DNA of 64,000 bases, taken from the IMG/VR virus record IMGVR_UViG_3300030514_000001, positions 1-64,000 of that record; one strand, 5' to 3'. The stretch comes from a virus (Duplodnaviria > Heunggongvirae > Uroviricota > Caudoviricetes > Herelleviridae). Position 1 is the stretch's first letter; every line of letters starts with the position of its first letter. The position numbers and the translations under genes are program-made. Positions 3,487 through 59,664 of the stretch are shown piece after piece. The notes beneath the pieces were generated by a model. The model had not been told where the DNA came from. It saw nothing but the letters and a program-made list of their open reading frames with translations, and did no database searches.

Positions 3487-4082
3487 AAGTAGTGAAATTT
3501 AGTGAGGAAGAGGTTCTAGTCATCTTAGAGACTACTTCACAGGACAAAGAAGAAACAAAGGAAATCTTATTACCATACCGGGAGCTATTAAAGTGGTACC
3601 CACTCAATATTAATTATACATACAAGTATTCAACATCTAAAGATATTATGTATCTAGTAAAAGACGGTACATACAAACGAGACTTATACGATGTAAAATC
3701 AACGAAGCAAGCGAAAGCGCTTCCATTAAAGAAAGGCGTTCCATATAACAAGACAGTACATAACCGTAACATGAAGATTGTAAAGTGGGCGGAAGAGAAT
3801 AACTTAATCGAGGTGAGCGAAGAGAAAGTACTATTAACAGACCCGAAGGTTGGTATCTGTCGTGTACTGGAAACGATTGAGTCCATTAAGCAGCACCTAG
3901 TTAAAAAATACATATTTGAAGAAGGAAAGAATACTGACTTTGATATCGATGTGAACTTAGGATTTCCGAAGTTTACGGACGAACTAATTTATAAATATGC
4001 TACGGAAACAGAATTATACCAACTTGAACTATTAGGAGAGGTTTACACTCTACTTAACCTATACAGACGATTAGAAGAGTGA
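3483..4082 (+). CDS. hypothetical protein
   Basis: 199-aa ORF with RBS AAAGGGGGA; overlaps the upstream stop (ATGA). Confidence 0.55.
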   Translation: MKVVKFSEEEVLVILETTSQDKEETKEILLPYRELLKWYPLNINYTYKYSTSKDIMYLVKDGTYKRDLYDVKSTKQAKALPLKKGVPYNKTVHNRNMKIVKWAEENNLIEVSEEKVLLTDPKVGICRVLETIESIKQHLVKKYIFEEGKNTDFDIDVNLGFPKFTDELIYKYATETELYQLELLGEVYTLLNLYRRLEE

Positions 4083-4091
4083 GGGATTTAA

Positions 4092-5162
4092 ATGTTTCTA
4101 GATTTACTTTATCAGGAGCTAGGAGATAACAAACCAGCATCCGGAGGAGAGACACGATTTAATTGTCAGTTTTGTGGTAATACCAAATATAAGTTTTATG
4201 TACATGATGAAACAGGTTTATGGCAATGTAAAGTGTGCGGGGAGAAAGGTAACCCAGTATCATTCGTAATGAAGCATTTCCAAGTTACATTCCCGGAAGC
4301 GAAAGACATACTGGAAACATATGACTATGAGGTTGGAGAATATAATCGTCAATCCTTATCACATCAAAAGTATGGAGCGCATTTAACAGAAGAAGAGCAG
4401 TTATATATGTACATCATGAATCAAGGGGACGTTCCAGAGGATGAGGTAAAGGTGAAATATACTTGCCCTTATCCACCTTCTAATTGTAAGTCACTCATAG
4501 AGAACTTTAATAATCCAGAAGCGTTCCCTTTCTTTGTTTACTTAAATGGTCGCGGTATTACGTTAGAGCAAATTAAACAACATAATATCTCCTACGTTGT
4601 AGATGGGATAGCTAGATTGTCAGATGATAAAGAACTACGATTAATCAACCATTTAGTGTTCTTTGCGTTTGACCCACATAGAAAGGCGATATACTGGAAC
4701 ACGAGGTCTATAGACCCTAAACCATTCATAAAGAGTTTAAACGCTCCAGCGAAGCCGACAGAGTACTCAAAATCGACGGTAGTTATGAATCTCAACAACG
4801 CATGGAAAGAAGATAAGATTGTCATCGTGGAAGGATTCTTTAATATGACCACAATCGGGAACTGTGCAGTTGTTACATATGGTAAGCAGGTATCGAATCA
4901 ACAAATTAAAACGATACTGGAAGCGACCAAGAAAAAGAAACAACCTATCTACATTTACTTGGATAGAGATGGTTGGGGAGAATCGATTAAAGTAGCTGCG
5001 AAGATTCATAGTTTCGAACCGGATAGAGCTGTCTACTATGTGTACAGTGAAGACGACAAGGATGCGAATGATTTAGGTTACGAAGAAGCTTGGAACAGAA
5101 TTAACAACGCGATTCCGGCTGACACAGAAGGGGAAACTATTTTTAGAATGTTACATTTATAA
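4092..5162 (+). CDS. DNA primase (DnaG-type zinc-binding + TOPRIM)
   Basis: CQFCGN...CKVCGEKGN zinc ribbon; TOPRIM-like IVIVEGFFN and YLDRDGWG acidic motifs. Confidence 0.75.
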   Translation: MFLDLLYQELGDNKPASGGETRFNCQFCGNTKYKFYVHDETGLWQCKVCGEKGNPVSFVMKHFQVTFPEAKDILETYDYEVGEYNRQSLSHQKYGAHLTEEEQLYMYIMNQGDVPEDEVKVKYTCPYPPSNCKSLIENFNNPEAFPFFVYLNGRGITLEQIKQHNISYVVDGIARLSDDKELRLINHLVFFAFDPHRKAIYWNTRSIDPKPFIKSLNAPAKPTEYSKSTVVMNLNNAWKEDKIVIVEGFFNMTTIGNCAVVTYGKQVSNQQIKTILEATKKKKQPIYIYLDRDGWGESIKVAAKIHSFEPDRAVYYVYSEDDKDANDLGYEEAWNRINNAIPADTEGETIFRMLHL

Positions 5163-8354: not shown

Positions 8355-8905
8355 TAACTTTCGAAAAAGGTACTAGATGTAAAGACCCTTTGTACAAAAG
8401 GTTAAAAAGTGTACATAGGAGTATGATTAATAGATGTTATAACCCTAACTCTTTTGGTTATAAATGGTACAGAGCTAAAGGTGTCACAGTTTGTGATGAA
8501 TGGTTGAAATTAAACGGTTTTATAGAAACAATACACACTGTAGAAGGTTTCGACCTAGATAAATTTTCTAATGGTGAGTTAGAGCTAGATAAAGATAGTA
8601 AAGATTCTAAAAACAAAGTGTATTCACCGGAAACGTGTATTTTTCTTAGTAAGCTCGAAAACAAACAGTATAAACCATCCTACCAGAAAGAGATGATAGC
8701 TTTATCTCCTACAGATGAAGTATACGTATTTAATAACCAGAAGAAATTTTCTTTGGAACATGGTGTATCGGATGCTAGTATTCGAGATGGTTTAAAAGGG
8801 AAAAACAAACTCCCTCTCGGATGGTTATTCGTCTACAGTAAAGGAAAACAGATTACGAAAGAAGAGTTGATTAGTATTAGAGAAGACTTAAAGAAAAAGA
8901 AATAG
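8351..8905 (+). CDS. conserved phage protein, '...RC-NPN...Y-W-Y...G-V-VCDEW' motif family (paralog of the 31287 gene)
   Basis: ATGA start/stop overlap with the upstream gene; shares the RCxNPN...(I/V)CDEWL motif with ORF 31287-31943. Confidence 0.5.
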   Translation: MITFEKGTRCKDPLYKRLKSVHRSMINRCYNPNSFGYKWYRAKGVTVCDEWLKLNGFIETIHTVEGFDLDKFSNGELELDKDSKDSKNKVYSPETCIFLSKLENKQYKPSYQKEMIALSPTDEVYVFNNQKKFSLEHGVSDASIRDGLKGKNKLPLGWLFVYSKGKQITKEELISIREDLKKKK

Positions 8906-52788: not shown

Positions 52789-52828
52789 TACTTTTTAAAC
52801 TTTTTTATAACTTTTTACGATTTTGTGG
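52789..52828. repeat. phased CTTTTT(T)A repeats (about 10-bp period) upstream of the actin-like gene
   Basis: ACTTTTTAAA / CTTTTTTATAA / CTTTTTACGA / TTTTGTGG, units starting at 52791, 52800, 52811. Confidence 0.4.
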
Positions 52829-52887
52829 TATCAAATAGGCGAATGCTCCATATGATGTATTAAGAAATCACAAAGGGGGAAAACAAA

Positions 52888-53979
52888 ATGACAAAGAAAT
52901 GGCAAGGAACTAGCGTAGGTTTATCTGTAGGTGCAGTAGATGATGGGTTCGGAGATGTAAAATGTGACAACAACGGTCATCCATTCTTAATTCCTTCATT
53001 CGTAACAAACTTTAAAGAGAAACCATCTACAGAGTTTGTAGTAGAAGGTAAGCAGTTAGAATACATCGCTTGTGAAATTGATGGTAAGAAATATGTAGTC
53101 GGAGATTATGCTACAAAGTTAGACCCGGATATTGAATGGACTGGAGGAGAAAATAAACATAATGATAATAAGTTTCCGATTATTATGAAAACTGTTTTAG
53201 GTCTTATGAGCAAGGGTACAAATGAAACCATCTACACACTTATGATGAACTTACCAATTAAGAACGATACACCAGAACGTAGAGAACAACTTACACAACT
53301 TGTAAAAGGTACACATGAGATGAAAATCTCATACGACGGTATCAACTGGATAGAAAGAACAGTCACAGTTGAAGATGTATGTATCAAGAAACAACCGTTC
53401 GGCTCTTTATGTGACCTAATGCTAGACAACAACGGAGAAATCGTTGACCATAACATTGCAAAAGGATTTAACGTATTAGCGGATATTGGAGCAAGAACTT
53501 TGAATGTTCTGACATTGGATTCATTAGAAGAACAACCGGAGCTAACGACTCATACGAACATGGGTATGTTTAGTAGCTACCTACAAATCGGTAAGTACTT
53601 AGAGAATCAACTAGGAGCTACGATTCCAGATGGAAAGTTACCAATGATTATCAAGAATAAAGAAATAAAAGGTATGGACATCACACCAGTCATCAATCAA
53701 GCTTATGAAAATCATGCGAATACCATCCTTAATACACTGGACAGAATACTTATTAATAGCTGGGCTTTTGTAGATACAATCATCTTTACTGGTGGAGGCT
53801 CTGAACTACTCAAACAATACTTATCAGAAAGATTCGCTAACAGAGGAGTTAAGGTGTTGTTCCTAGATAGATACGCAAATGTGCGCGGTTTAAGGAAGTA
53901 CGGGGCACGTATGGCATCGAAAGCGAAGAAGAGTACAGTTACTATTAAAGTCGGCACACAGCCGTATATTAGTAAATGA
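52888..53979 (+). CDS. actin-like ATPase (ParM/StbA/Alp-type)
   Basis: Phosphate-1-like LSVGAVDDGFGDVK, phosphate-2-like ADIGARTLNV, adenosine motif IIFTGGGSELL; 363 aa; RBS AAAGGGGGAAAAC. Confidence 0.6.
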   Translation: MTKKWQGTSVGLSVGAVDDGFGDVKCDNNGHPFLIPSFVTNFKEKPSTEFVVEGKQLEYIACEIDGKKYVVGDYATKLDPDIEWTGGENKHNDNKFPIIMKTVLGLMSKGTNETIYTLMMNLPIKNDTPERREQLTQLVKGTHEMKISYDGINWIERTVTVEDVCIKKQPFGSLCDLMLDNNGEIVDHNIAKGFNVLADIGARTLNVLTLDSLEEQPELTTHTNMGMFSSYLQIGKYLENQLGATIPDGKLPMIIKNKEIKGMDITPVINQAYENHANTILNTLDRILINSWAFVDTIIFTGGGSELLKQYLSERFANRGVKVLFLDRYANVRGLRKYGARMASKAKKSTVTIKVGTQPYISK

Positions 53980-53989
53980 GGTGACTTAA

Positions 53990-54256
53990 ATGCGAAAGTC
54001 AGTCTACCTTCGAGATAAGATGGATGATGACATACTAGAAGTCATTAAGCCATTACTAAAGAACCATAGCTTTGCACATGTAATGAGGGAACTAGCTAGA
54101 GATGGAATCAAGTATAGAAAAGGGGAAGGAGGTGTCGTGTATCCTAAAGTCATACAAAGTGTGACACCTGTAGAATCGGCTCCAATACAAGATGTAAAAT
54201 TAGTCAAAAAAGAAGCATCTGACAAGGATATCGAAAGCAGATTAGATAGTTTCTAA
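53990..54256 (+). CDS. small putative DNA-binding protein (ribbon-helix-helix-like; ParR-like adaptor candidate)
   Basis: N-terminal KSVYLRDKMDDDILEVI beta-strand/helix pattern; 88 aa directly downstream of the actin-like gene. Confidence 0.4.
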   Translation: MRKSVYLRDKMDDDILEVIKPLLKNHSFAHVMRELARDGIKYRKGEGGVVYPKVIQSVTPVESAPIQDVKLVKKEASDKDIESRLDSF

Positions 54257-54261
54257 CAAAA

Positions 54262-54298
54262 CAAAAAGCACATCAGACGACATGCTTCCAAGTTTTAT
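54262..54298. terminator. bidirectional terminator between convergent genes
   Basis: Imperfect palindrome AAGCACAT...ATGTGCTT flanked by T-tracts on both strands; contains the stop codon of the minus-strand HNH gene. Confidence 0.5.
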
Positions 54299-55006
54299 AA
54301 TTTACAATCTGAGATATGTTCTTTCTTACCACATTAAACATATCACCTAATTGTTGATGGGTGTATTGACCTGTACTATGTAATCTTCTGATTTCTCTAA
54401 CTTTATCTTCTGTAAGTTTAGCTGCGTTGGAAGATGTAGGCTGTTTAGAGATAACTGGCTCGTCAACTAAATTAAGATGTTTCCATGTCCTTCCTTTAAT
54501 CACAGCGTCCACCGTACTATCCGTAACATCAAACTGAGCGCTTATTTGTGCTACAGAGAATCTACCTGATTTATACATTTCGACTATCTTATGTACTTTG
54601 TCTTCACTTAACTTACGATTGTGACTCGATTCACCTAAACCCACACTAAGCAACCCGGTATTTACTGCATGTTGTGTGTTTTCCGAAGGTGTGACCCACT
54701 CTAAGTTTGATAGTTCGAAGTTCCGCTTATTACCGTCCTTATGGTTTATGTGCGGCTTATTTAAAGGGTTAGGGATAAAGACGATTGCTAGTAATCTGTG
54801 TAAGAGATAACTTTTAGACACTTTGTTGTGTGTTAGTGTCACTTTAGGATATCTCTTGTCGCTTTAGGATATCTCTTGTCGCTTACGGGGTTTGAAACGC
54901 TAATCATTTTACCTTTACTAATATTCTTAACCTTACCTGTGTTACTTATTTCGTAGTTGTCTCCACATTCAACGACACCCTCTAACGGTTTCCATACTTC
55001 TGTCAT
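54273..55006 (-). pseudogene. free-standing HNH homing endonuclease (NUMOD-like N-terminus + HNH core + HTH), frame-disrupted by a 20-bp tandem duplication
   Basis: Minus strand: ATG at 55006 with GAGGGA RBS encodes MTEVWKPLEGVVECGDNYEISNTGKV...; that frame stops inside the duplicated 20-mer. Removing one copy joins it in-frame to the HNH body (ORF 54273-54842: HKDGNKRNF...NLEWVT). Confidence 0.65.
54842..54881. repeat. perfect 20-bp tandem duplication (CTTTAGGATATCTCTTGTCG x2) inside the HNH endonuclease gene
   Basis: Two identical adjacent 20-mers read directly from the sequence. Confidence 0.9.
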
Positions 55007-55082
55007 AATATTGATTCCCTCTTTCTTATGGTATATCTCTATTATAACATACTTCGAAAATAAATCGGGGGAGGCTACTTTT

Positions 55083-55196
55083 GAAATTCCCTTGCGAGAA
55101 AAACAGAAATGTTCGGGAAAAACAAAACGTTGATTTAACGCTATTTTCCCGATATTAGATAGGGAAAAACGTTAATTCCCTGCGTAATTCCCGCAT
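55083..55196. promoter_or_regulatory. cluster of GGGAAAAAC / AATTCCC direct and inverted repeats in a non-coding region (candidate operator / recognition locus)
   Basis: CGGGAAAAAC (55113), inverted TTTTCCCG (55145), GGGAAAAACGTTAATTCCC partial palindrome (55162), AATTCCCTTGCG / AATTCCCTGCG / AATTCCCGCA repeats; six GGGAA/TTCCC cores in about 110 bp with no ORF. Confidence 0.45.
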
Positions 55197-55216
55197 TTAT
55201 AATAGGGTTATAACGG

Positions 55217-55378
55217 TTAATTCACTATCCCGTAATCATGTAAAACTTTTAAAATCTGCTCTAATTCTTCCATACTAATATCCACGTCTCTATCCTTGTT
55301 GATGTCGTGAAGAACTAAATGATTTACTTTCTGCATTTGTCTCTCATACTGAGCTAAAGAATCTGTGAACCAAGACAT
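55217..55378 (-). CDS. hypothetical small protein (minus strand)
   Basis: 53-aa ORF, one of only two minus-strand coding regions; weak RBS. Confidence 0.3.
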   Translation of the reverse strand: MSWFTDSLAQYERQMQKVNHLVLHDINKDRDVDISMEELEQILKVLHDYGIVN

Positions 55379-55456
55379 ATAATCATCGTCCTCTCTTGTT
55401 TGATATTTCTATCGTTACCAAAAATAAAAAACTTATACATGAAGGAGGAAAAAATT

Positions 55457-55648
55457 ATGGGTATCGTAGCTGTAGGTGCTGGAATCGCGTTAGTTTGTAC
55501 AACTGGAATGGCATTATCAACGGTGTTTAAGTTTCTTCATTCATTCGAAATGGAAGTTGGGGTGAAAAAGGAGAAGCGCGGAAGAGGTAGAGATGTTAAT
55601 GAGGAACGTTTTGAGAACATGGCTAATCGTGCAAGATTAAACAAATAA
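55457..55648 (+). CDS. small membrane protein with a basic C-terminal tail
   Basis: ATG after GAAGGAGGAAAAAATT; N-terminal TM GIVAVGAGIALVCTTGMAL, then KKEKRGRGR. Confidence 0.5.
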   Translation: MGIVAVGAGIALVCTTGMALSTVFKFLHSFEMEVGVKKEKRGRGRDVNEERFENMANRARLNK

Positions 55649-55662
55649 AGGAGATGTTAACG

Positions 55663-56190
55663 ATGATTATTAATTACGATGCGAAAAATAAAGCTGCTTG
55701 GGTTGAGTACACTCCATTCACAAAAGCTCCAATGGTAGATGAGTCGGTTTTTATGTACCAAAATATAAAGGAGGAGATAATGAGCGCAAAGGGTATGCAG
55801 AAGCTCAAAAAAATAAAGAAAGCAAAAAAGATAATCAAAATGTCACTATCAATATTAGGAGCAAGCGCGGGTCTTTCGACGAGAGCATTTGCGAGTGGGG
55901 TAACAGGGAAAACACCTCTACTGGCTCCATTCACACCGAGCGTAATGGTGGAGTACGGGTTGCAAGTAGCCTTTCTAGCGGTGGGTGTAGCAGTAGCATT
56001 AAGTATCGTCCTACTAGTCATAGCGGGAGTACTGAGAATGTTCAGAAAGAGCCAAGAAGCGAACGTATGGACGCAAGACATCATCAAAGGGATAACGCAA
56101 GTACTGATAAGCGTTCCAAGCATTTACATCATCTATCGGGTCGCAAGTTACTTATTCAGAAATTTAAACTTCTTAAGTCTAGGCTTCTAA
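55663..56190 (+). CDS. membrane protein with an internal signal-peptide-like segment and TM
   Basis: ATG 9 nt after AAAGGAG; a strong internal RBS (AAGGAGGAG) precedes the ATG at 55780, which would yield a 136-aa protein with a K-rich n-region, h-region, AFA|S and a TM. Confidence 0.45.
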   Translation: MIINYDAKNKAAWVEYTPFTKAPMVDESVFMYQNIKEEIMSAKGMQKLKKIKKAKKIIKMSLSILGASAGLSTRAFASGVTGKTPLLAPFTPSVMVEYGLQVAFLAVGVAVALSIVLLVIAGVLRMFRKSQEANVWTQDIIKGITQVLISVPSIYIIYRVASYLFRNLNFLSLGF

Positions 56191-57293
56191 AGATTGGAGC
56201 GATACCAGCAGCAACTATCTCTACATTCTTCTTTACTTCTATAGGAGATAAAGCATACGCGGAAACGATTAGTAATGATTCATTCTTTGATAAAGGTAAG
56301 AGCATGTTCTCTGGGTTCATCAAAGATACATTAATACCTACAGGAACACCAAACCCTATAAAAGAAGTAATGGATTGGTTCGGGGAGTTCGTCACTCTTA
56401 TTAAAGACTTACCGCACAATGTAGCGAAGATGTCCGCAGAGCTGTTGTCTTGGATATACGACTTATGCGCTGGACTTATCTTAAAGACTCCTCTGTTCTT
56501 ATTCGATAATGAATGGTTTACAACAATGAGTTTAGGATTTAGCGGAGTATCTATAGGGATTGTAGTTGTTCTTACTGTTGTAGAATGCATTAAAAGAATG
56601 TTATCTGGAGCAAATAAGAAGCTAAGACCGATGGAGTTTTCTACAATTATGAAACGCTGGTCACTTATGGCGGGTGTCACATCGGTAACGCCTTTCTTGT
56701 TCAAGTCCGCATTCAAATTATTAAATCTCATCTCTGGCAAACTTACAAGTATGGGTAGCGAAATTATGACAGCTAGTGCCTTGACTATTACATTTAGTAC
56801 GATTGATGTTATCACATTGTTAGTATTCGATGCGATACTGATTTCTACAGTTATTCCGATGTTATGGACGAATGGAAGAAGATTTTTTGACCTATTGGTA
56901 TTAGGCGTAGTAGCTCCTGTCGCATTAGTATGTTGGGTATTTGATTCACATAGGCATTTCTTCAATCAATGGTTCAATAATGTCAAACATCTATCTCTTG
57001 TGCAAGTCTATCACTCTCTATTCCTACTAATTATCGGGTTATTCATCTTCGGTATCCCGTTCCCAGCCGACTTCACAGGTACAATCGTTAAGTTGCTCGT
57101 TGTAATCGGAGGCTTTGCTCGTATGCAGAACCCACCTAAAATCATTGCAAACAAATTAGATAATGGGAAGGGATTAGATGAAGTAATGAAGAGTAATGTA
57201 AAAGAGACATCTAAAAAGTTAATTAAGAACTTTGCAATGTCAAAAGCTACAATTTTAAGTCCGTTAGCGTTATTTAAGAAAATTAAAAAATAA
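56067..57293 (+). CDS. polytopic integral membrane protein (>=7 TM)
   Basis: 408 aa; K/R-rich segment then hydrophobic core ending AYA (signal-peptide-like), then about 7 TM helices; overlaps the upstream gene by 124 nt in another frame, so the start is uncertain. Confidence 0.5.
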   Translation: MDARHHQRDNASTDKRSKHLHHLSGRKLLIQKFKLLKSRLLKIGAIPAATISTFFFTSIGDKAYAETISNDSFFDKGKSMFSGFIKDTLIPTGTPNPIKEVMDWFGEFVTLIKDLPHNVAKMSAELLSWIYDLCAGLILKTPLFLFDNEWFTTMSLGFSGVSIGIVVVLTVVECIKRMLSGANKKLRPMEFSTIMKRWSLMAGVTSVTPFLFKSAFKLLNLISGKLTSMGSEIMTASALTITFSTIDVITLLVFDAILISTVIPMLWTNGRRFFDLLVLGVVAPVALVCWVFDSHRHFFNQWFNNVKHLSLVQVYHSLFLLIIGLFIFGIPFPADFTGTIVKLLVVIGGFARMQNPPKIIANKLDNGKGLDEVMKSNVKETSKKLIKNFAMSKATILSPLALFKKIKK

Positions 57294-57305
57294 GGAGAGG
57301 TTCTT

Positions 57306-57419
57306 ATGAGTATCACAACACTGATTTTACTGAATACAACGATGTTATTGGCGACTGCTGCTGTGAATGCTGTGCAATGTGTAATCATTATGAAGGAGTT
57401 GAAGCATCGTGAAGAGTAA
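57306..57419 (+). CDS. small hydrophobic peptide
   Basis: 37 aa, RBS TAAGGAGAGG; not in the track. Confidence 0.3.
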   Translation: MSITTLILLNTTMLLATAAVNAVQCVIIMKELKHREE

Positions 57420-59664
57420 AGGATACAAGAACATATCGAACTACTTCTCGCAGATTGAGGATGTATCAGGAGCCTTTAAAACCATCTTAGAACAAGAGAC
57501 AGACGGTGTATTCGGTATAGAGCTGGAGATGTATAAAGGAGGGCGTAATATTACAGTGGTTACGCCCCCACATATCCGTTTTAATGAAACGAACGTTCTA
57601 CCTTATCGTTTAACGTTAGTAGCGCGTCATACAGACGACTTACATGCTTATGAAGGTTATCTATCTAAACCCTCGTTCTTACCGTTGTACGAGGGCATGA
57701 GAGGCTTATTATTACGTGAATTACTGGAGATACAAGTAGGAGAGGATGAAGCACTAGAAATCCAGTGGCTATTCAAGAGATATGTAGATAATTGGCTCCT
57801 AACTTCTATAGAAAGGTATAAGAGTTACTTGAGTGGGAATGAATACCCTGCTGGTTCTAAAATAGGAAGAACATTTCAAGATAAAATCCTTCACGCTATC
57901 AATAAGTTATCATCATTTGATATGGCTCGAACATATAGTGAGAAAGTGGAACAGAAGATTGTTGGTAAAGTGTATAAATTCAAACTAGGAATCACCATTC
58001 GTTCTAAGGAACCTACGGCGCTCGTACAGCAGATTGAAACTATACTACGTAAATACGATTCGCATAATACGGTAAGCTTGTACAAGAGGAAGTTAAAGGG
58101 CTTAAAAGATGAATGTGAGGAAAGACTAGTTATGAACGGGGAGAATGTACTGAGTGATACAGAGATTGTATCCTTATTCGGTGGAACAGTAGTAGCTCCC
58201 CAAGAAGTTGAACACGCTCAATCTGTTACTACTGCACCGAATAAAGTTAGAACACCTAGAAAGGATATCGGAGGTCTAGTCTCGTTGTTGCCTACATATC
58301 CAAGAGAAGAAGTGAAAGTGGATGAAAATATTGTGAGCTACCTAGCCGAAGCCATGAAGCGTGTAGGTCTGATTCCAACAGCGAGACTAGCGAATAGTAC
58401 TGTCACAGCGGGTGCGCGGTTGACTGTTATTCAATGTGATATACCTAAGAAGAAGAACTTAAGTCATCTTATTTCAAAGGCTTCCGATATCCAAGCAGCA
58501 CTAGGAGTCCCTTCTCTTAGTATAGAACAAGGTGAGGAACCTGATACTGCCAAATTTACCCTACCAAACGAAGAAGCAGCCGTTATCAGCCTTAGAGAGC
58601 TTATAGAGAGTCCAGACTTCCAAGAGTACGCGAGTAATCATGCGTTACCATTTATAGTAGGTGTTGATGAAGTAGATACACCAATCTATCTAGACTTGAC
58701 AAAGCTCGTACATCTTATGATTGCAGGTACAACGGGTTCTGGTAAATCTGTATTTATGAATACACTAATCATTTGTCTCATGGCTACGAACTCACCAGAG
58801 ATGTTACGGTTTGTCATGATTGACCCTAAAATAGTAGAACTGGCTCAATACGAAGGGATGGCGCACGTAGATAAGATTGTAACGGATATGGAGAAAGCAG
58901 GGGAAGCACTCAATAAGCTAGTAGAAGAAATGGAGAAGCGATATGAAACGTTTAAGGATGCAGGAGTTAAAAATATAAAGGTCTACAATGAAGTAGCAGA
59001 CTGTAAAATGCCTTATATCGTATGTGTGATTGATGAATACGCAGACCTACATGATACAAACCCACATGTAGAAGAGTATGTCACACGACTAGGACAGAAA
59101 GCCCGTGCTGCTGGAATCCATTTAGTTATCGCTACACAAAGACCGGATGCAAAGGTAATCAGTGGACGTATCAAAGCAAATGTGCAGAATGCAATCAGTT
59201 TCAATTTAAACAGTAATGTAGATTATAAAACAGTATTCGGTAAAGGTATAGGAAATACGACTCTGCTGGGTCGTGGAGATGGTGTCATGAGAATAGTAGC
59301 TCACCCTAAAGAGTTCCAGAGATTCCAGAGCGCTATTGTATCTCCTAATGAAGTGGAAGAAGGTAAAGTGTATCAAAAGATTAGGGATTACTTTGGTGGA
59401 GAGTTAGTCGAAGAGGAGATAGAAGAAACAGAAGAAGTTGATACAGAGGAACCGTTAGTGAAGCTTAAAAAGATTATCGCTCGTACTAGGGAGACGAAGG
59501 TAGGTAGGCTTAGAGAACTCATGGGAATCAAAGCAGAAGTATTAACAGACCTCATGGGTAAGTTAGTGGAAGAAGGTTGGCTCATCAAACACGCTTCTAA
59601 GACAAAAGGATATGAGCTAATCATTCCAGAAGAGATGTTAAACGAATATAAAGGTGATTGGTAA
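57409..59664 (+). CDS. FtsK/SpoIIIE-family DNA translocase-like ATPase (soluble N-domain + motor + gamma-like wHTH)
   Basis: Walker A MIAGTTGSGKS, Walker B VCVIDEYADL, RAAGIHLVIATQRPD motif, C-terminal ETKVGRLRELMGIKAEVLTDLMGKLVEEGWL winged-helix; no TM in the 751 aa. Confidence 0.8.
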   Translation: MKSKGYKNISNYFSQIEDVSGAFKTILEQETDGVFGIELEMYKGGRNITVVTPPHIRFNETNVLPYRLTLVARHTDDLHAYEGYLSKPSFLPLYEGMRGLLLRELLEIQVGEDEALEIQWLFKRYVDNWLLTSIERYKSYLSGNEYPAGSKIGRTFQDKILHAINKLSSFDMARTYSEKVEQKIVGKVYKFKLGITIRSKEPTALVQQIETILRKYDSHNTVSLYKRKLKGLKDECEERLVMNGENVLSDTEIVSLFGGTVVAPQEVEHAQSVTTAPNKVRTPRKDIGGLVSLLPTYPREEVKVDENIVSYLAEAMKRVGLIPTARLANSTVTAGARLTVIQCDIPKKKNLSHLISKASDIQAALGVPSLSIEQGEEPDTAKFTLPNEEAAVISLRELIESPDFQEYASNHALPFIVGVDEVDTPIYLDLTKLVHLMIAGTTGSGKSVFMNTLIICLMATNSPEMLRFVMIDPKIVELAQYEGMAHVDKIVTDMEKAGEALNKLVEEMEKRYETFKDAGVKNIKVYNEVADCKMPYIVCVIDEYADLHDTNPHVEEYVTRLGQKARAAGIHLVIATQRPDAKVISGRIKANVQNAISFNLNSNVDYKTVFGKGIGNTTLLGRGDGVMRIVAHPKEFQRFQSAIVSPNEVEEGKVYQKIRDYFGGELVEEEIEETEEVDTEEPLVKLKKIIARTRETKVGRLRELMGIKAEVLTDLMGKLVEEGWLIKHASKTKGYELIIPEEMLNEYKGDW

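Follow-up and report, generated by a model that had tools for sequence, protein, structure and literature searches.

An iteron array beside the parM gene of a Bequatrovirus and its relatives: a candidate centromere-like site

What is a dense cluster of short repeats doing close to the gene for an actin-like ParM protein in a virulent phage? The question is raised by positions 55,020 to 55,216 of the window analyzed here, that is, the 64,000 nucleotides at positions 1 to 64,000 of IMG/VR record IMGVR_UViG_3300030514_000001. This DNA comes from a Bacillus phage of the Herelleviridae, subfamily Bastillevirinae, genus Bequatrovirus (96-98% identity to B4, B5S, Spock and Flapjack by megablast), a virulent 160-kb myovirus by type. 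A preliminary description of the sequence had treated the region as a single repeat-dense non-coding locus. Judged by alignment with relatives, it is a composite of part of a homing-endonuclease cassette of the HNH type (55007-55076) and a native repeat array (55077-55216), and the annotation is corrected here in that a degenerate homing-endonuclease cassette accounts for one third of the flagged region. The array, on comparative evidence, is real, conserved and under box-specific constraint, and it is very probably an iteron array bound by some protein. The reading we favor, for which we consider the chances evenly balanced, is that it serves as a centromere resembling parC or parH for the phage ParM system and is bound by a ParR-like protein, called R here, whose gene sits just after parM.

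The repeat array in the window and in related phages

In the window the array holds seven units, each WWWTTCC(C) or its complement GGGAAWWW, within 140 bp (55077-55216). The units and the conserved words at its right end are:

55084, direct: unit AAATTCCC
55096, inverted and degenerate: unit GAGAAAAAC
55115, inverted: unit GGGAAAAAC
55143, direct: unit ATTTTCCC
55162, inverted: unit GGGAAAAAC
55173, direct: unit TAATTCCC
55185, direct: unit TAATTCCC
55194-55203, right of the last unit: conserved CATTTATAAT
55204-55216, right end of the array: conserved AGGGTTATAACGG

Much of the symmetry noticed in the preliminary description was borne out. The inverted partner, TTTTCCCG(A) at 55144, forms a perfect 9-bp inverted repeat with 55113-55121 across a gap of 22 nt, the 19-bp partial palindrome GGGAAAAACGTTAATTCCC is present at 55162-55180, and the three AATTCCC repeats lie at 55085, 55174 and 55186, followed by TTGCG, TGCG and GC respectively. 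The repeat said to occur twice in direct orientation does so as the 9-mer GGGAAAAAC (55115 and 55162, with the degenerate GAGAAAAAC at 55096), but the 10-mer CGGGAAAAAC is found only once. Over the full 64 kb, TAATTCCC and GGGAAAAAC each occur three times, with two copies of each inside the array locus. Six WWWTTCC/GGAAWWW sites within 140 bp are the unique maximum of the 64 kb (the runner-up has three), and this number was reached in one of 200 first-order Markov simulations. As the density pattern was picked after inspection of the sequence, independent support for a non-chance array comes from its conservation in relatives.

That conservation of position extends to at least nine genera. The loci read were 11 short-variant arrays of Bequatro- and Bastillevirus, three long-variant arrays including the window, LBC2, representatives of Caeruleo-, Tsarbomba-, Nituna-, Grisebachstrasse-, Agate-, Shala- and Moonbeamvirus, and two metagenomic contigs. 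In all Bastillevirinae loci read, inserted genes disregarded, the first intergenic DNA after the R gene holds the array, and in most relatives R lies within 100 bp of it. The gene beyond the array varies, being a minus-strand open reading frame (ORF) of 53 amino acids (aa), a plus-strand M23 peptidase gene or an HNH gene. A blastn search returned 42 records and 42 places, one place per genome, and the GC content of the array is 36-42% against 37% for the window overall. The comparison with related phages proposed in the preliminary description thus went in favor of the motifs, which in relatives show 8-bp phasing.

The usual layout consists of four or five direct units at a period of exactly 8 (rarely 9) bp, an abutting inverted unit, and then two further units at about 19 and 11-12 bp, each 8-bp unit being a 4-bp box with a 4-bp AT-rich spacer. 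The short variant, an intergenic spacer of 84-93 bp, is almost wholly repeats, with box spacings of 8, 8, 8, 19 and 12 bp that are near-identical in 11 phages; the 93-bp array of B5S reads GTTTTTCC GTAATTCC CTAATTCC ATAATTCC / CGGGAAAAAC GT TAATTCCC TGCG TAATTCCC GCATTTATAAG, where the slash marks the abutment. In the long variant (window, C30-1 and vB_BcgM) the right half, GGGAAAAAC GT TAATTCCC TGCG TAATTCCC GCATTTATAAT, is identical to that of the short version, and only this variant has the hairpin-capable inverted repeat 55113/55144. Blocks of at least four contiguous units (four to five) are seen in the short-variant arrays and in those of other genera, while the window units, with the starts listed above, are non-contiguous and keep only the motif, two of them (55173 and 55185) lying 12 bp apart. 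With seven units in the window and six to nine in relatives, the locus carries a repeat array such as a partition locus would be expected to have.

Pooling 94 TTCC-core units from 14 arrays gave a logo of N-W-W-W-T-T-C-C-(C), and of the 282 positions in the triplets that precede the box, 280 are A or T; 77 of the units are direct and 17 inverted. When the 11 short-variant arrays were aligned, the box columns were 92% identical compared with 68% for the remaining columns, and none of 10,000 random column sets matched the box value. Spacers at orthologous positions interchange TTTT, TAAT and AAAT with the boxes fixed, and such fixed boxes with drifting A/T spacers fit a protein that would read the box directly and the spacer indirectly. 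A box plus AT-rich spacer at a period of 7-8 bp (8 bp in the relatives), mixed orientation, and boxes kept among variable spacers are together the features of arrays bound by ribbon-helix-helix (RHH) proteins. Between genera the box differs while the layout persists:

Bequatro-, Bastille- and Tsarbombavirus: box TTCC
Caeruleovirus: unit TTACC(C), box TACC
Goe3, phiNIT1, phiAGATE, Shbh1 and contig L037 (B. subtilis-type phages): box TTTCC(C)
LBC2: unit TAAAACC / GGGTTTTAA, box AACC
Moonbeam: five exact 8-bp units NGTNNTCC

Two smaller observations concern words within or resembling the arrays. The 20-mer GTTATATCAAGGGTTTTAAC in the LBC2 array (locus L021, 5175-5195) is found again, letter for letter but in reverse complement, in the Shbh1 array (L029, 4430-4450); the ParM proteins of these two phages have diverged, each being 63-70% identical to that of the window, and the akin words CGTATCAAGGGTTTTAC and CTATCAAGGGGTTAAAAG occur in Bc431v3 and BCP78. 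Words like CATTTATAA...AGGGTTWTAAC at 5154 and 8446-8466 of the window lie in or beside coding sequence and were judged to be chance.

The parM-R gene pair and the inserted homing endonuclease

The features surrounding and including the array are as follows:

52888-53979, plus strand: ParM-like actin-family ATPase, 363 aa (Pfam, PDB, PHROG 691)
53990-54256, plus strand: candidate ParR-like adaptor of 88 aa, called R, just after parM
54273-55006, minus strand: inserted, frameshifted NUMOD4-HNH_3-HTH homing-endonuclease gene (Pfam matches)
55007-55076, minus strand: 5' untranslated region (5'UTR) and promoter-like region of the HNH cassette, outside the array, aligning with vB_BcgM only
55077-55216, plus strand: iteron array, long variant, native phage DNA
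55113-55152, no strand assigned: hairpin-capable inverted repeat TCGGGAAAA / TTTTCCCGA around AACGTTGATTTAACGCT, long variant only
55217-55378, minus strand: conserved 53-aa ORF (PHROG 5065), convergent with parM and R, its stop codon abutting the array
55457-59664, plus strand: operon for a DUF7394 protein, membrane proteins and an FtsK/SpoIIIE-like translocase (57409-59664)

The ParM protein matches the Pfam families ALP_N (2.3e-17), MreB-like_C (2.9e-23) and Alp7A_like_C (3.4e-07); its best PDB match is 3js6, deposited as 'Uncharacterized ParM protein' (2e-11), and further ParM structures match as well, the range being 2e-11 to 1e-7. It falls in PHROG 691, 'partition protein', and is present in 177 phage records. 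By Pfam and PDB the locus therefore has the actin-fold ParM/Alp ATPase that marks a type II (ParMRC-like) partition locus.

An R homologue follows parM, directly or past an inserted HNH gene, in every Bastillevirinae genus read. The protein has an extended N-terminus and two helices, a disordered linker of hypervariable length, and a conserved C-terminal helix (...DIESRLDSF), an architecture resembling that of ParR. Its small gene stands directly after the motor gene, and its conserved N-terminal domain is of putative RHH fold. R is of 'unknown function' in PHROGs and has no Pfam family. A search of IMG/VR yielded homologues from the Bastillevirinae and Brevibacillus phage Jenst alone, and none was found in bacterial genomes.

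Further right, the 53-aa ORF is restricted to phages of the B. cereus group, and in the B. subtilis group a plus-strand M23 metallopeptidase gene takes its place. Pfam matches in the downstream operon are DUF7394 (9e-13) and FtsK_SpoIIIE (8e-50), and the C-terminal 78 aa of the FtsK-like protein are conserved in 160 phage records. The operon (DUF7394, two to three membrane proteins, a 37-aa ORF and the FtsK/SpoIIIE-like translocase) is syntenic with parM-R in about 160 phage records, and one of its membrane proteins carries a TrbL-like annotation in phage Atlee.

At the window's site the HNH gene is missing in B4, B5S, Flapjack and most relatives, where the stop codons of R and of the 53-aa ORF are 84-93 bp apart; vB_BcgM shares the insertion. 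C30-1 has no HNH gene, but from about 55080 on its spacer matches the long one of the window. We assign 55007-55076 to the HNH cassette because this segment aligns only with the HNH-bearing vB_BcgM and is absent from the HNH-less C30-1. Its minus strand carries a ribosome-binding site (RBS) AGAGGGAA and an extended -10 element TGTTATAAT at 55049-55041, with the HNH start codon at 55006. A 20-bp tandem duplication (TGTCRCTTTAGGATATCTCT twice, 54837-54876) breaks the gene itself into two ORFs; deletion of either copy in silico restores an HNH ORF of 237 aa, vB_BcgM has an intact homologue of 187 aa at the same site, and a terminator-like hairpin of the gene lies at 54264-54289. Across the relatives (loci L001-L028) HNH genes occupy differing intergenic sites of the locus, namely upstream of parM (Flapjack), the parM/R gap (Chotacabras and LBC2), the R/array gap (window and vB_BcgM) and the array/peptidase gap (phiNIT1 and Moonbeam). 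In the loci read, insertions, whether HNH genes or small ORFs, flank the array on either side and none lies inside it.

This anatomy alters several statements of the preliminary description. The region had been placed beside the membrane/FtsK operon and given a divergent promoter; its flanks are the HNH gene and the 53-aa ORF, and because both are on the minus strand (HNH start at 55006, 53-aa ORF stop at 55217) the DNA at 55007-55216 is not a divergent promoter region. The left 70 bp are HNH cassette, and the divergent region of the operon is 55379-55456. The claim that no ORF is present needs qualification, as a mechanical 58-aa TTG ORF (54957-55133, plus strand) overlaps, but this is antisense to the HNH start and has no support as a gene. 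Finally, R lies 1 kb upstream only because the HNH gene is inserted.

A candidate centromere and the competing readings

From the observed anatomy, conservation and linkage of the array to the parM-R pair, we infer that R binds it, and it may do so through an RHH fold. Several R dimers would coat the 8-bp units cooperatively, reading the box directly and the AT spacer indirectly, and the resulting nucleoprotein complex would offer the conserved C-terminal helices of R to the ends of a ParM-like filament. Phage DNA coupled in this way to the filament could then be positioned, or replicating phage genomes separated. The same complex may also double as an operator or roadblock controlling read-through or initiation into the membrane/FtsK operon, since binders of this kind, such as omega and ParG, usually act as repressors too. 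Of the two binders suggested in the preliminary description, the small 'RHH-like' protein is a better fit than the winged helix-turn-helix (wHTH) of the FtsK-like protein, although sequence and fold searches gave no confirmation of the RHH assignment itself.

Several known systems resemble parts of this proposal. Type II ParMRC loci use an adaptor whose N-terminal part binds DNA and whose C-terminal tail engages the filament. Those of R1, pSK41, pLS32 (AlfA/AlfB/parN) and pLS20 (Alp7AR) share with the phage locus an actin-like ATPase gene followed by a small gene for an adaptor, putative in the phage, and a repeat array in cis; for AlfAB/parN, this combination of motor, adaptor and site is summarized in bioRxiv 10.1101/190744. 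They differ in that their centromere lies upstream, over the promoter, with repeats of about 10-11 or 20 bp, whereas in the phage the array follows the adaptor gene and has a period of 8 bp. Among viruses, the nearest functional parallel to a ParM system is AlpA/AlpC/alpS of the C. glutamicum prophage CGP3, where the adaptor AlpA binds 24 alpS sites (TTAAnnG) and the system is required for viral DNA to replicate efficiently, not for partition of the classical plasmid type (PMC4446434). This is a phage-borne actin-like protein with an adjacent DNA-binding adaptor and a short repeat cluster; however, the prophage is actinobacterial, its repeats stand ahead of the operon in the promoter region and have an unrelated motif, and its proteins showed no relationship to R in sequence.

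The repeat design itself is closer to partition sites of another kind. The parH/OF sites of TP228 combine 4-bp boxes with AT-rich spacers of 4 bp. Most of their units are direct and some inverted, one dimer of the RHH protein ParG occupies each box, and the parH array is highly elastic to rearrangement (PMC3130281). Both they and the phage array are about 100 bp of a degenerate 4-bp box at an 8-bp period, mostly direct, with varying spacers and boxes kept, and the short and long phage variants with their box turnover parallel the elasticity of parH. They differ in that the TP228 motor ParF is a ParA-type ATPase (type Ib), not actin-like, that its box is ACTC and not TTCC, that its arrays are upstream of the operon and autoregulatory, and that the RHH fold is proven for ParG and putative for R. 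In pSM19035 of Firmicutes, whose ParB is the RHH protein omega, parS requires at least four contiguous 7-bp repeats in mixed orientation (PMC9499535), and the arrays double as operators (PMC4627068). The contiguous, short, mixed-orientation repeats are again similar, the phage relatives keeping four to five contiguous units, but the period is 7 and not 8 bp, several parS copies per plasmid each sit in a promoter region, and the motor is of the ParA type. If the favored reading is true, it would join an actin-type motor to an array of boxes and AT-rich spacers, which to date has been documented where the motor is of the ParA type and its partner an RHH protein. We found no study in the literature of the cis-site, the adaptor or the targets of ParM in these large Bacillus phages, about 170 of which have an annotated parM gene, and a candidate adaptor together with its DNA site would make the role of the actin-like cytoskeleton in virulent Herelleviridae directly testable.

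Jenst ties the iteron type to R from outside the Bastillevirinae. Its ParM is at 31% identity and it has a clear R homologue (LRRNMYLR...FAHFIRELMRDGVRYR; profile E 1e-21). In an array which is unannotated in its record (L031, 2240-2400), direct TTT(T)CACC units, about 10 in all, recur every 10-11 bp and are joined by inverted GGTGAAA/GAGTGAAA copies. This array precedes parM and has a divergent replication-initiator gene on its other side, which is the canonical parC place. Jenst thus shows the canonical ParMRC arrangement and period; no comparable array follows its R gene, and no FtsK-like gene is present in the 6-kb locus. In the Bastillevirinae the downstream array is the only array of an A/T tract plus NCC in the locus. 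The case of Jenst therefore suggests that this iteron type goes with the R family even if its position shifts.

A number of points weigh against a centromere bound by R. The first concern R itself, for which no similarity to ParR or to any RHH protein could be detected in either sequence or fold: searches against Pfam, against PDB (phmmer and profile) and against plasmids (tblastn) gave no matches, nor did hhalign against approximate sequences of CopG and R1 ParR. No clean code links either the R strand residues or the FtsK C-terminal domain to the box sequence; there is no simple protein-DNA co-variation, because in LBC2 the box has changed from TTCC to AACC and yet the putative recognition parts of both proteins are unchanged, the N-terminal domain of R being 87% identical and its putative strand identical. 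The most distant R homologue (L033) has no obvious array of W plus CC, and insertions part R from the array in the window, vB_BcgM and L038. A second group concerns the array. In the long variant its units are spread out and partly inverted instead of forming the contiguous 8-bp left block, and it lies downstream of the gene pair, unlike the promoter placement in R1, pSK41, AlfAB and AlpAC; a placement of the array upstream of parM over the promoter was seen only in Jenst and in none of the Bastillevirinae. At that classical parC position the window has AACTTTTT three times, 10-11 bp apart (52790-52818), and this set could be the true centromere. Arrays of the same style also occur elsewhere, with one similar array between tail genes of an unrelated siphovirus-like contig (L136) that has no R gene in 5.7 kb, and with tandem 8-bp AATTCCNN arrays common in IMG/VR viral contigs (loci L160-L223), so that the motif type is not exclusive to ParM loci. 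Lastly, the role of a partition system in a virulent myovirus is itself unproven.

The alternative that survives best, though we regard it as unlikely, is that the array is an operator only, through which R or another small phage protein controls a promoter in or near the array into the downstream operon, with no role for ParM. In the B. subtilis group the array takes up the DNA immediately before the plus-strand M23 peptidase gene. Its left part has direct and its right part inverted units, and the segment at the center carries words resembling a -10 element, among them GATATATG, TCCATATAAGG and GTATATC; the B. cereus-group arrays retain the word CATTTATAAT/CATTTATAAG/CATTTATGAG. In L038 the array stays with the peptidase gene while two small ORFs part it from R, and in many unrelated phage contigs the 8-bp AATTCCNN arrays stand directly upstream of an RBS. 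However, a scan of 54200-55700 for sigma-70-type promoters found none, and in the B. cereus group the next gene is convergent, so a promoter would first yield antisense RNA. In phiNIT1 and Moonbeam, an HNH gene parts the array from the operon and it is with R that the array remains, and the analogous array of Jenst is at parM. The two roles are also non-exclusive, omega and ParG both being repressors as well as centromere binders.

The motor encoded downstream offers another binder. KOPS (GGGNAGGG), SRS (GAGAAGGG) and TRS (GACCCGGA) are 8-mers read by the C-terminal wHTH of FtsK-family motors, and clt is a local repeat cluster at the traB gene itself. The array could accordingly be a clt-like loading or recognition site for the FtsK/SpoIIIE-like translocase, bound through its C-terminal winged-helix (gamma-like) domain, a reading which we consider improbable. 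In its favor, the units are, like those words, 8 bp long, with one G-rich strand (GGGAAWWW), the array keeps its synteny with the FtsK-like operon throughout the subfamily, the C-terminal domain is present in a set of 160 phage records which also has ParM, and a putative recognition segment of the FtsK-like protein, LVEEGWLIKHAS, is conserved between the window and LBC2. Synteny cannot separate this reading from binding by R, because ParM, R, the array and the FtsK operon are syntenic together. The array is at the end of the R gene, though, and about 2.2 kb and four to five genes upstream of the FtsK gene, whereas clt lies at its own motor gene; in the 6-kb locus of Jenst an R homologue and a similar array occur without any FtsK-like gene; and boxes with AT-rich spacers at 7-8 bp in mixed orientation are the documented signature of small coating proteins of the RHH type. 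Guidance of the KOPS/SRS type, where motifs are dispersed and skewed over the whole replicon, was rejected, the phage motif forming a single cluster per genome (42 records with 42 places; unique in the 64 kb). The interpretation in the preliminary description is supported in part, the locus being very probably a repeat array for protein binding, of the operator or centromere type. Slightly more doubtful again than a clt-like site alone is a combined machine, in which R would assemble on the array, ParM filaments would push the genome to the membrane, and the syntenic membrane proteins and FtsK-like translocase, its wHTH reading the same 8-bp units, would pump the DNA, for example into the forespore or across a septum, making the array of a virulent phage centromere and clt site in one.

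A replication origin with iterons for a phage initiator, which the preliminary description had also suggested, gained no specific support and seems very unlikely. Short mixed-orientation repeats beside AT-rich DNA are typical of origins, and the Jenst array adjoins a replication-initiator gene, but no initiator gene is adjacent to the array in the Bastillevirinae, no distinct AT-rich unwinding element was seen there, and the GC content of the array is near the window average. Equally remote is a bidirectional terminator or RNA structure between the convergent parM-R and 53-aa ORF, or functionless repeats of mobile DNA. In B. cereus-group phages the site does lie between convergent genes and beside an inserted HNH cassette in the window, and the central palindrome TTCCCGGGAA and the 9-bp inverted repeat 55113/55144 can form hairpins. 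RNA folds were computed for the arrays of three phages on both strands, and they are significant only for the long variant of the window (minus strand z = -3.4, plus strand z = -2.0), not for B5S (z = -1.4 and -0.07) or Bastille (z = -2.0 and -0.7), which lacks the inverted unit; as the fold is thus not conserved, the RNA or terminator reading was rejected. In BigBertha, moreover, GGGAAAAAC becomes GGGAATTTC with no compensating change in the partner arm, Rfam at E<=1 gave nothing relevant, and a terminator scan of 54200-55700 found only the HNH terminator and none inside the array. Junk would not be expected to show box-specific conservation over at least nine genera, and C30-1 carries the long array without any HNH gene.

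Repeats upstream of parM and arrays in other phages

The repeats upstream of parM are a second candidate protein-binding array. In relatives AACTTTTT is present in two to four copies, and after these units a promoter-like pair, TGTGGTATCAA ... CTCCATATGATG, is conserved (52820-52870 in the window). Other genera have upstream of parM GTACAGACA-N(15-19)-GCCCATAT and then GTAATACAAAG-like repeats of 10-11 bp in the parM 5'UTR, with five to six copies in Shbh1. Besides the window, these upstream features come from loci L004, L021 and L029. Near the same place, phage Riley (L006, 1552-1594) has the RBS and start of parM (ATGGCAAAGGGGGAAAACAAA) tandemly triplicated, which leads to a longer annotated ParM.

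Scanning IMG/VR for AATTCC(N2)x3 gave 67 loci, among which B5S was the sole relative and the available flanks held no R-family protein; scanning for TTCC(N4)x4 gave mostly simple tandem repeats among the matches listed. The commonness of the tandem AATTCCNN arrays suggests a widespread class of small proteins that would read TTCC boxes at an 8-bp period.

Several of these arrays are of interest in their own right. In L136 (IMGVR_UViG_3300002963_000018, 4026-4140) the array lies between the genes for the major tail protein and the tail chaperone, with no ParM in the 5.7 kb, and has the architecture of the phage arrays: AATTCC(C) is repeated five times at 8 bp, GGGAATTTT abuts the last of these units, GATATATATG stands at the center, and inverted GGAATTTGGGAATTT comes after it; the array is preceded by GTATTACAAAGTATG, a word shared with the parM 5'UTR of phiNIT1. 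The 14-mer TATATATGTAAAAC is shared by L164, which encodes a D5 primase-helicase-like protein, and is flanked there by AATTCCCC and GGGGAATT arms. Among the AATTCCNN arrays, some stand at contig ends (L182, L197, L202, L205 and L211), one recurrent group has GCAAATTCCAAAATTCCAAAATTCCAAGG upstream of an RBS, and another has mirrored blocks, GAGGGATT... / ...AATTCCT, with the slash at the mirror point.

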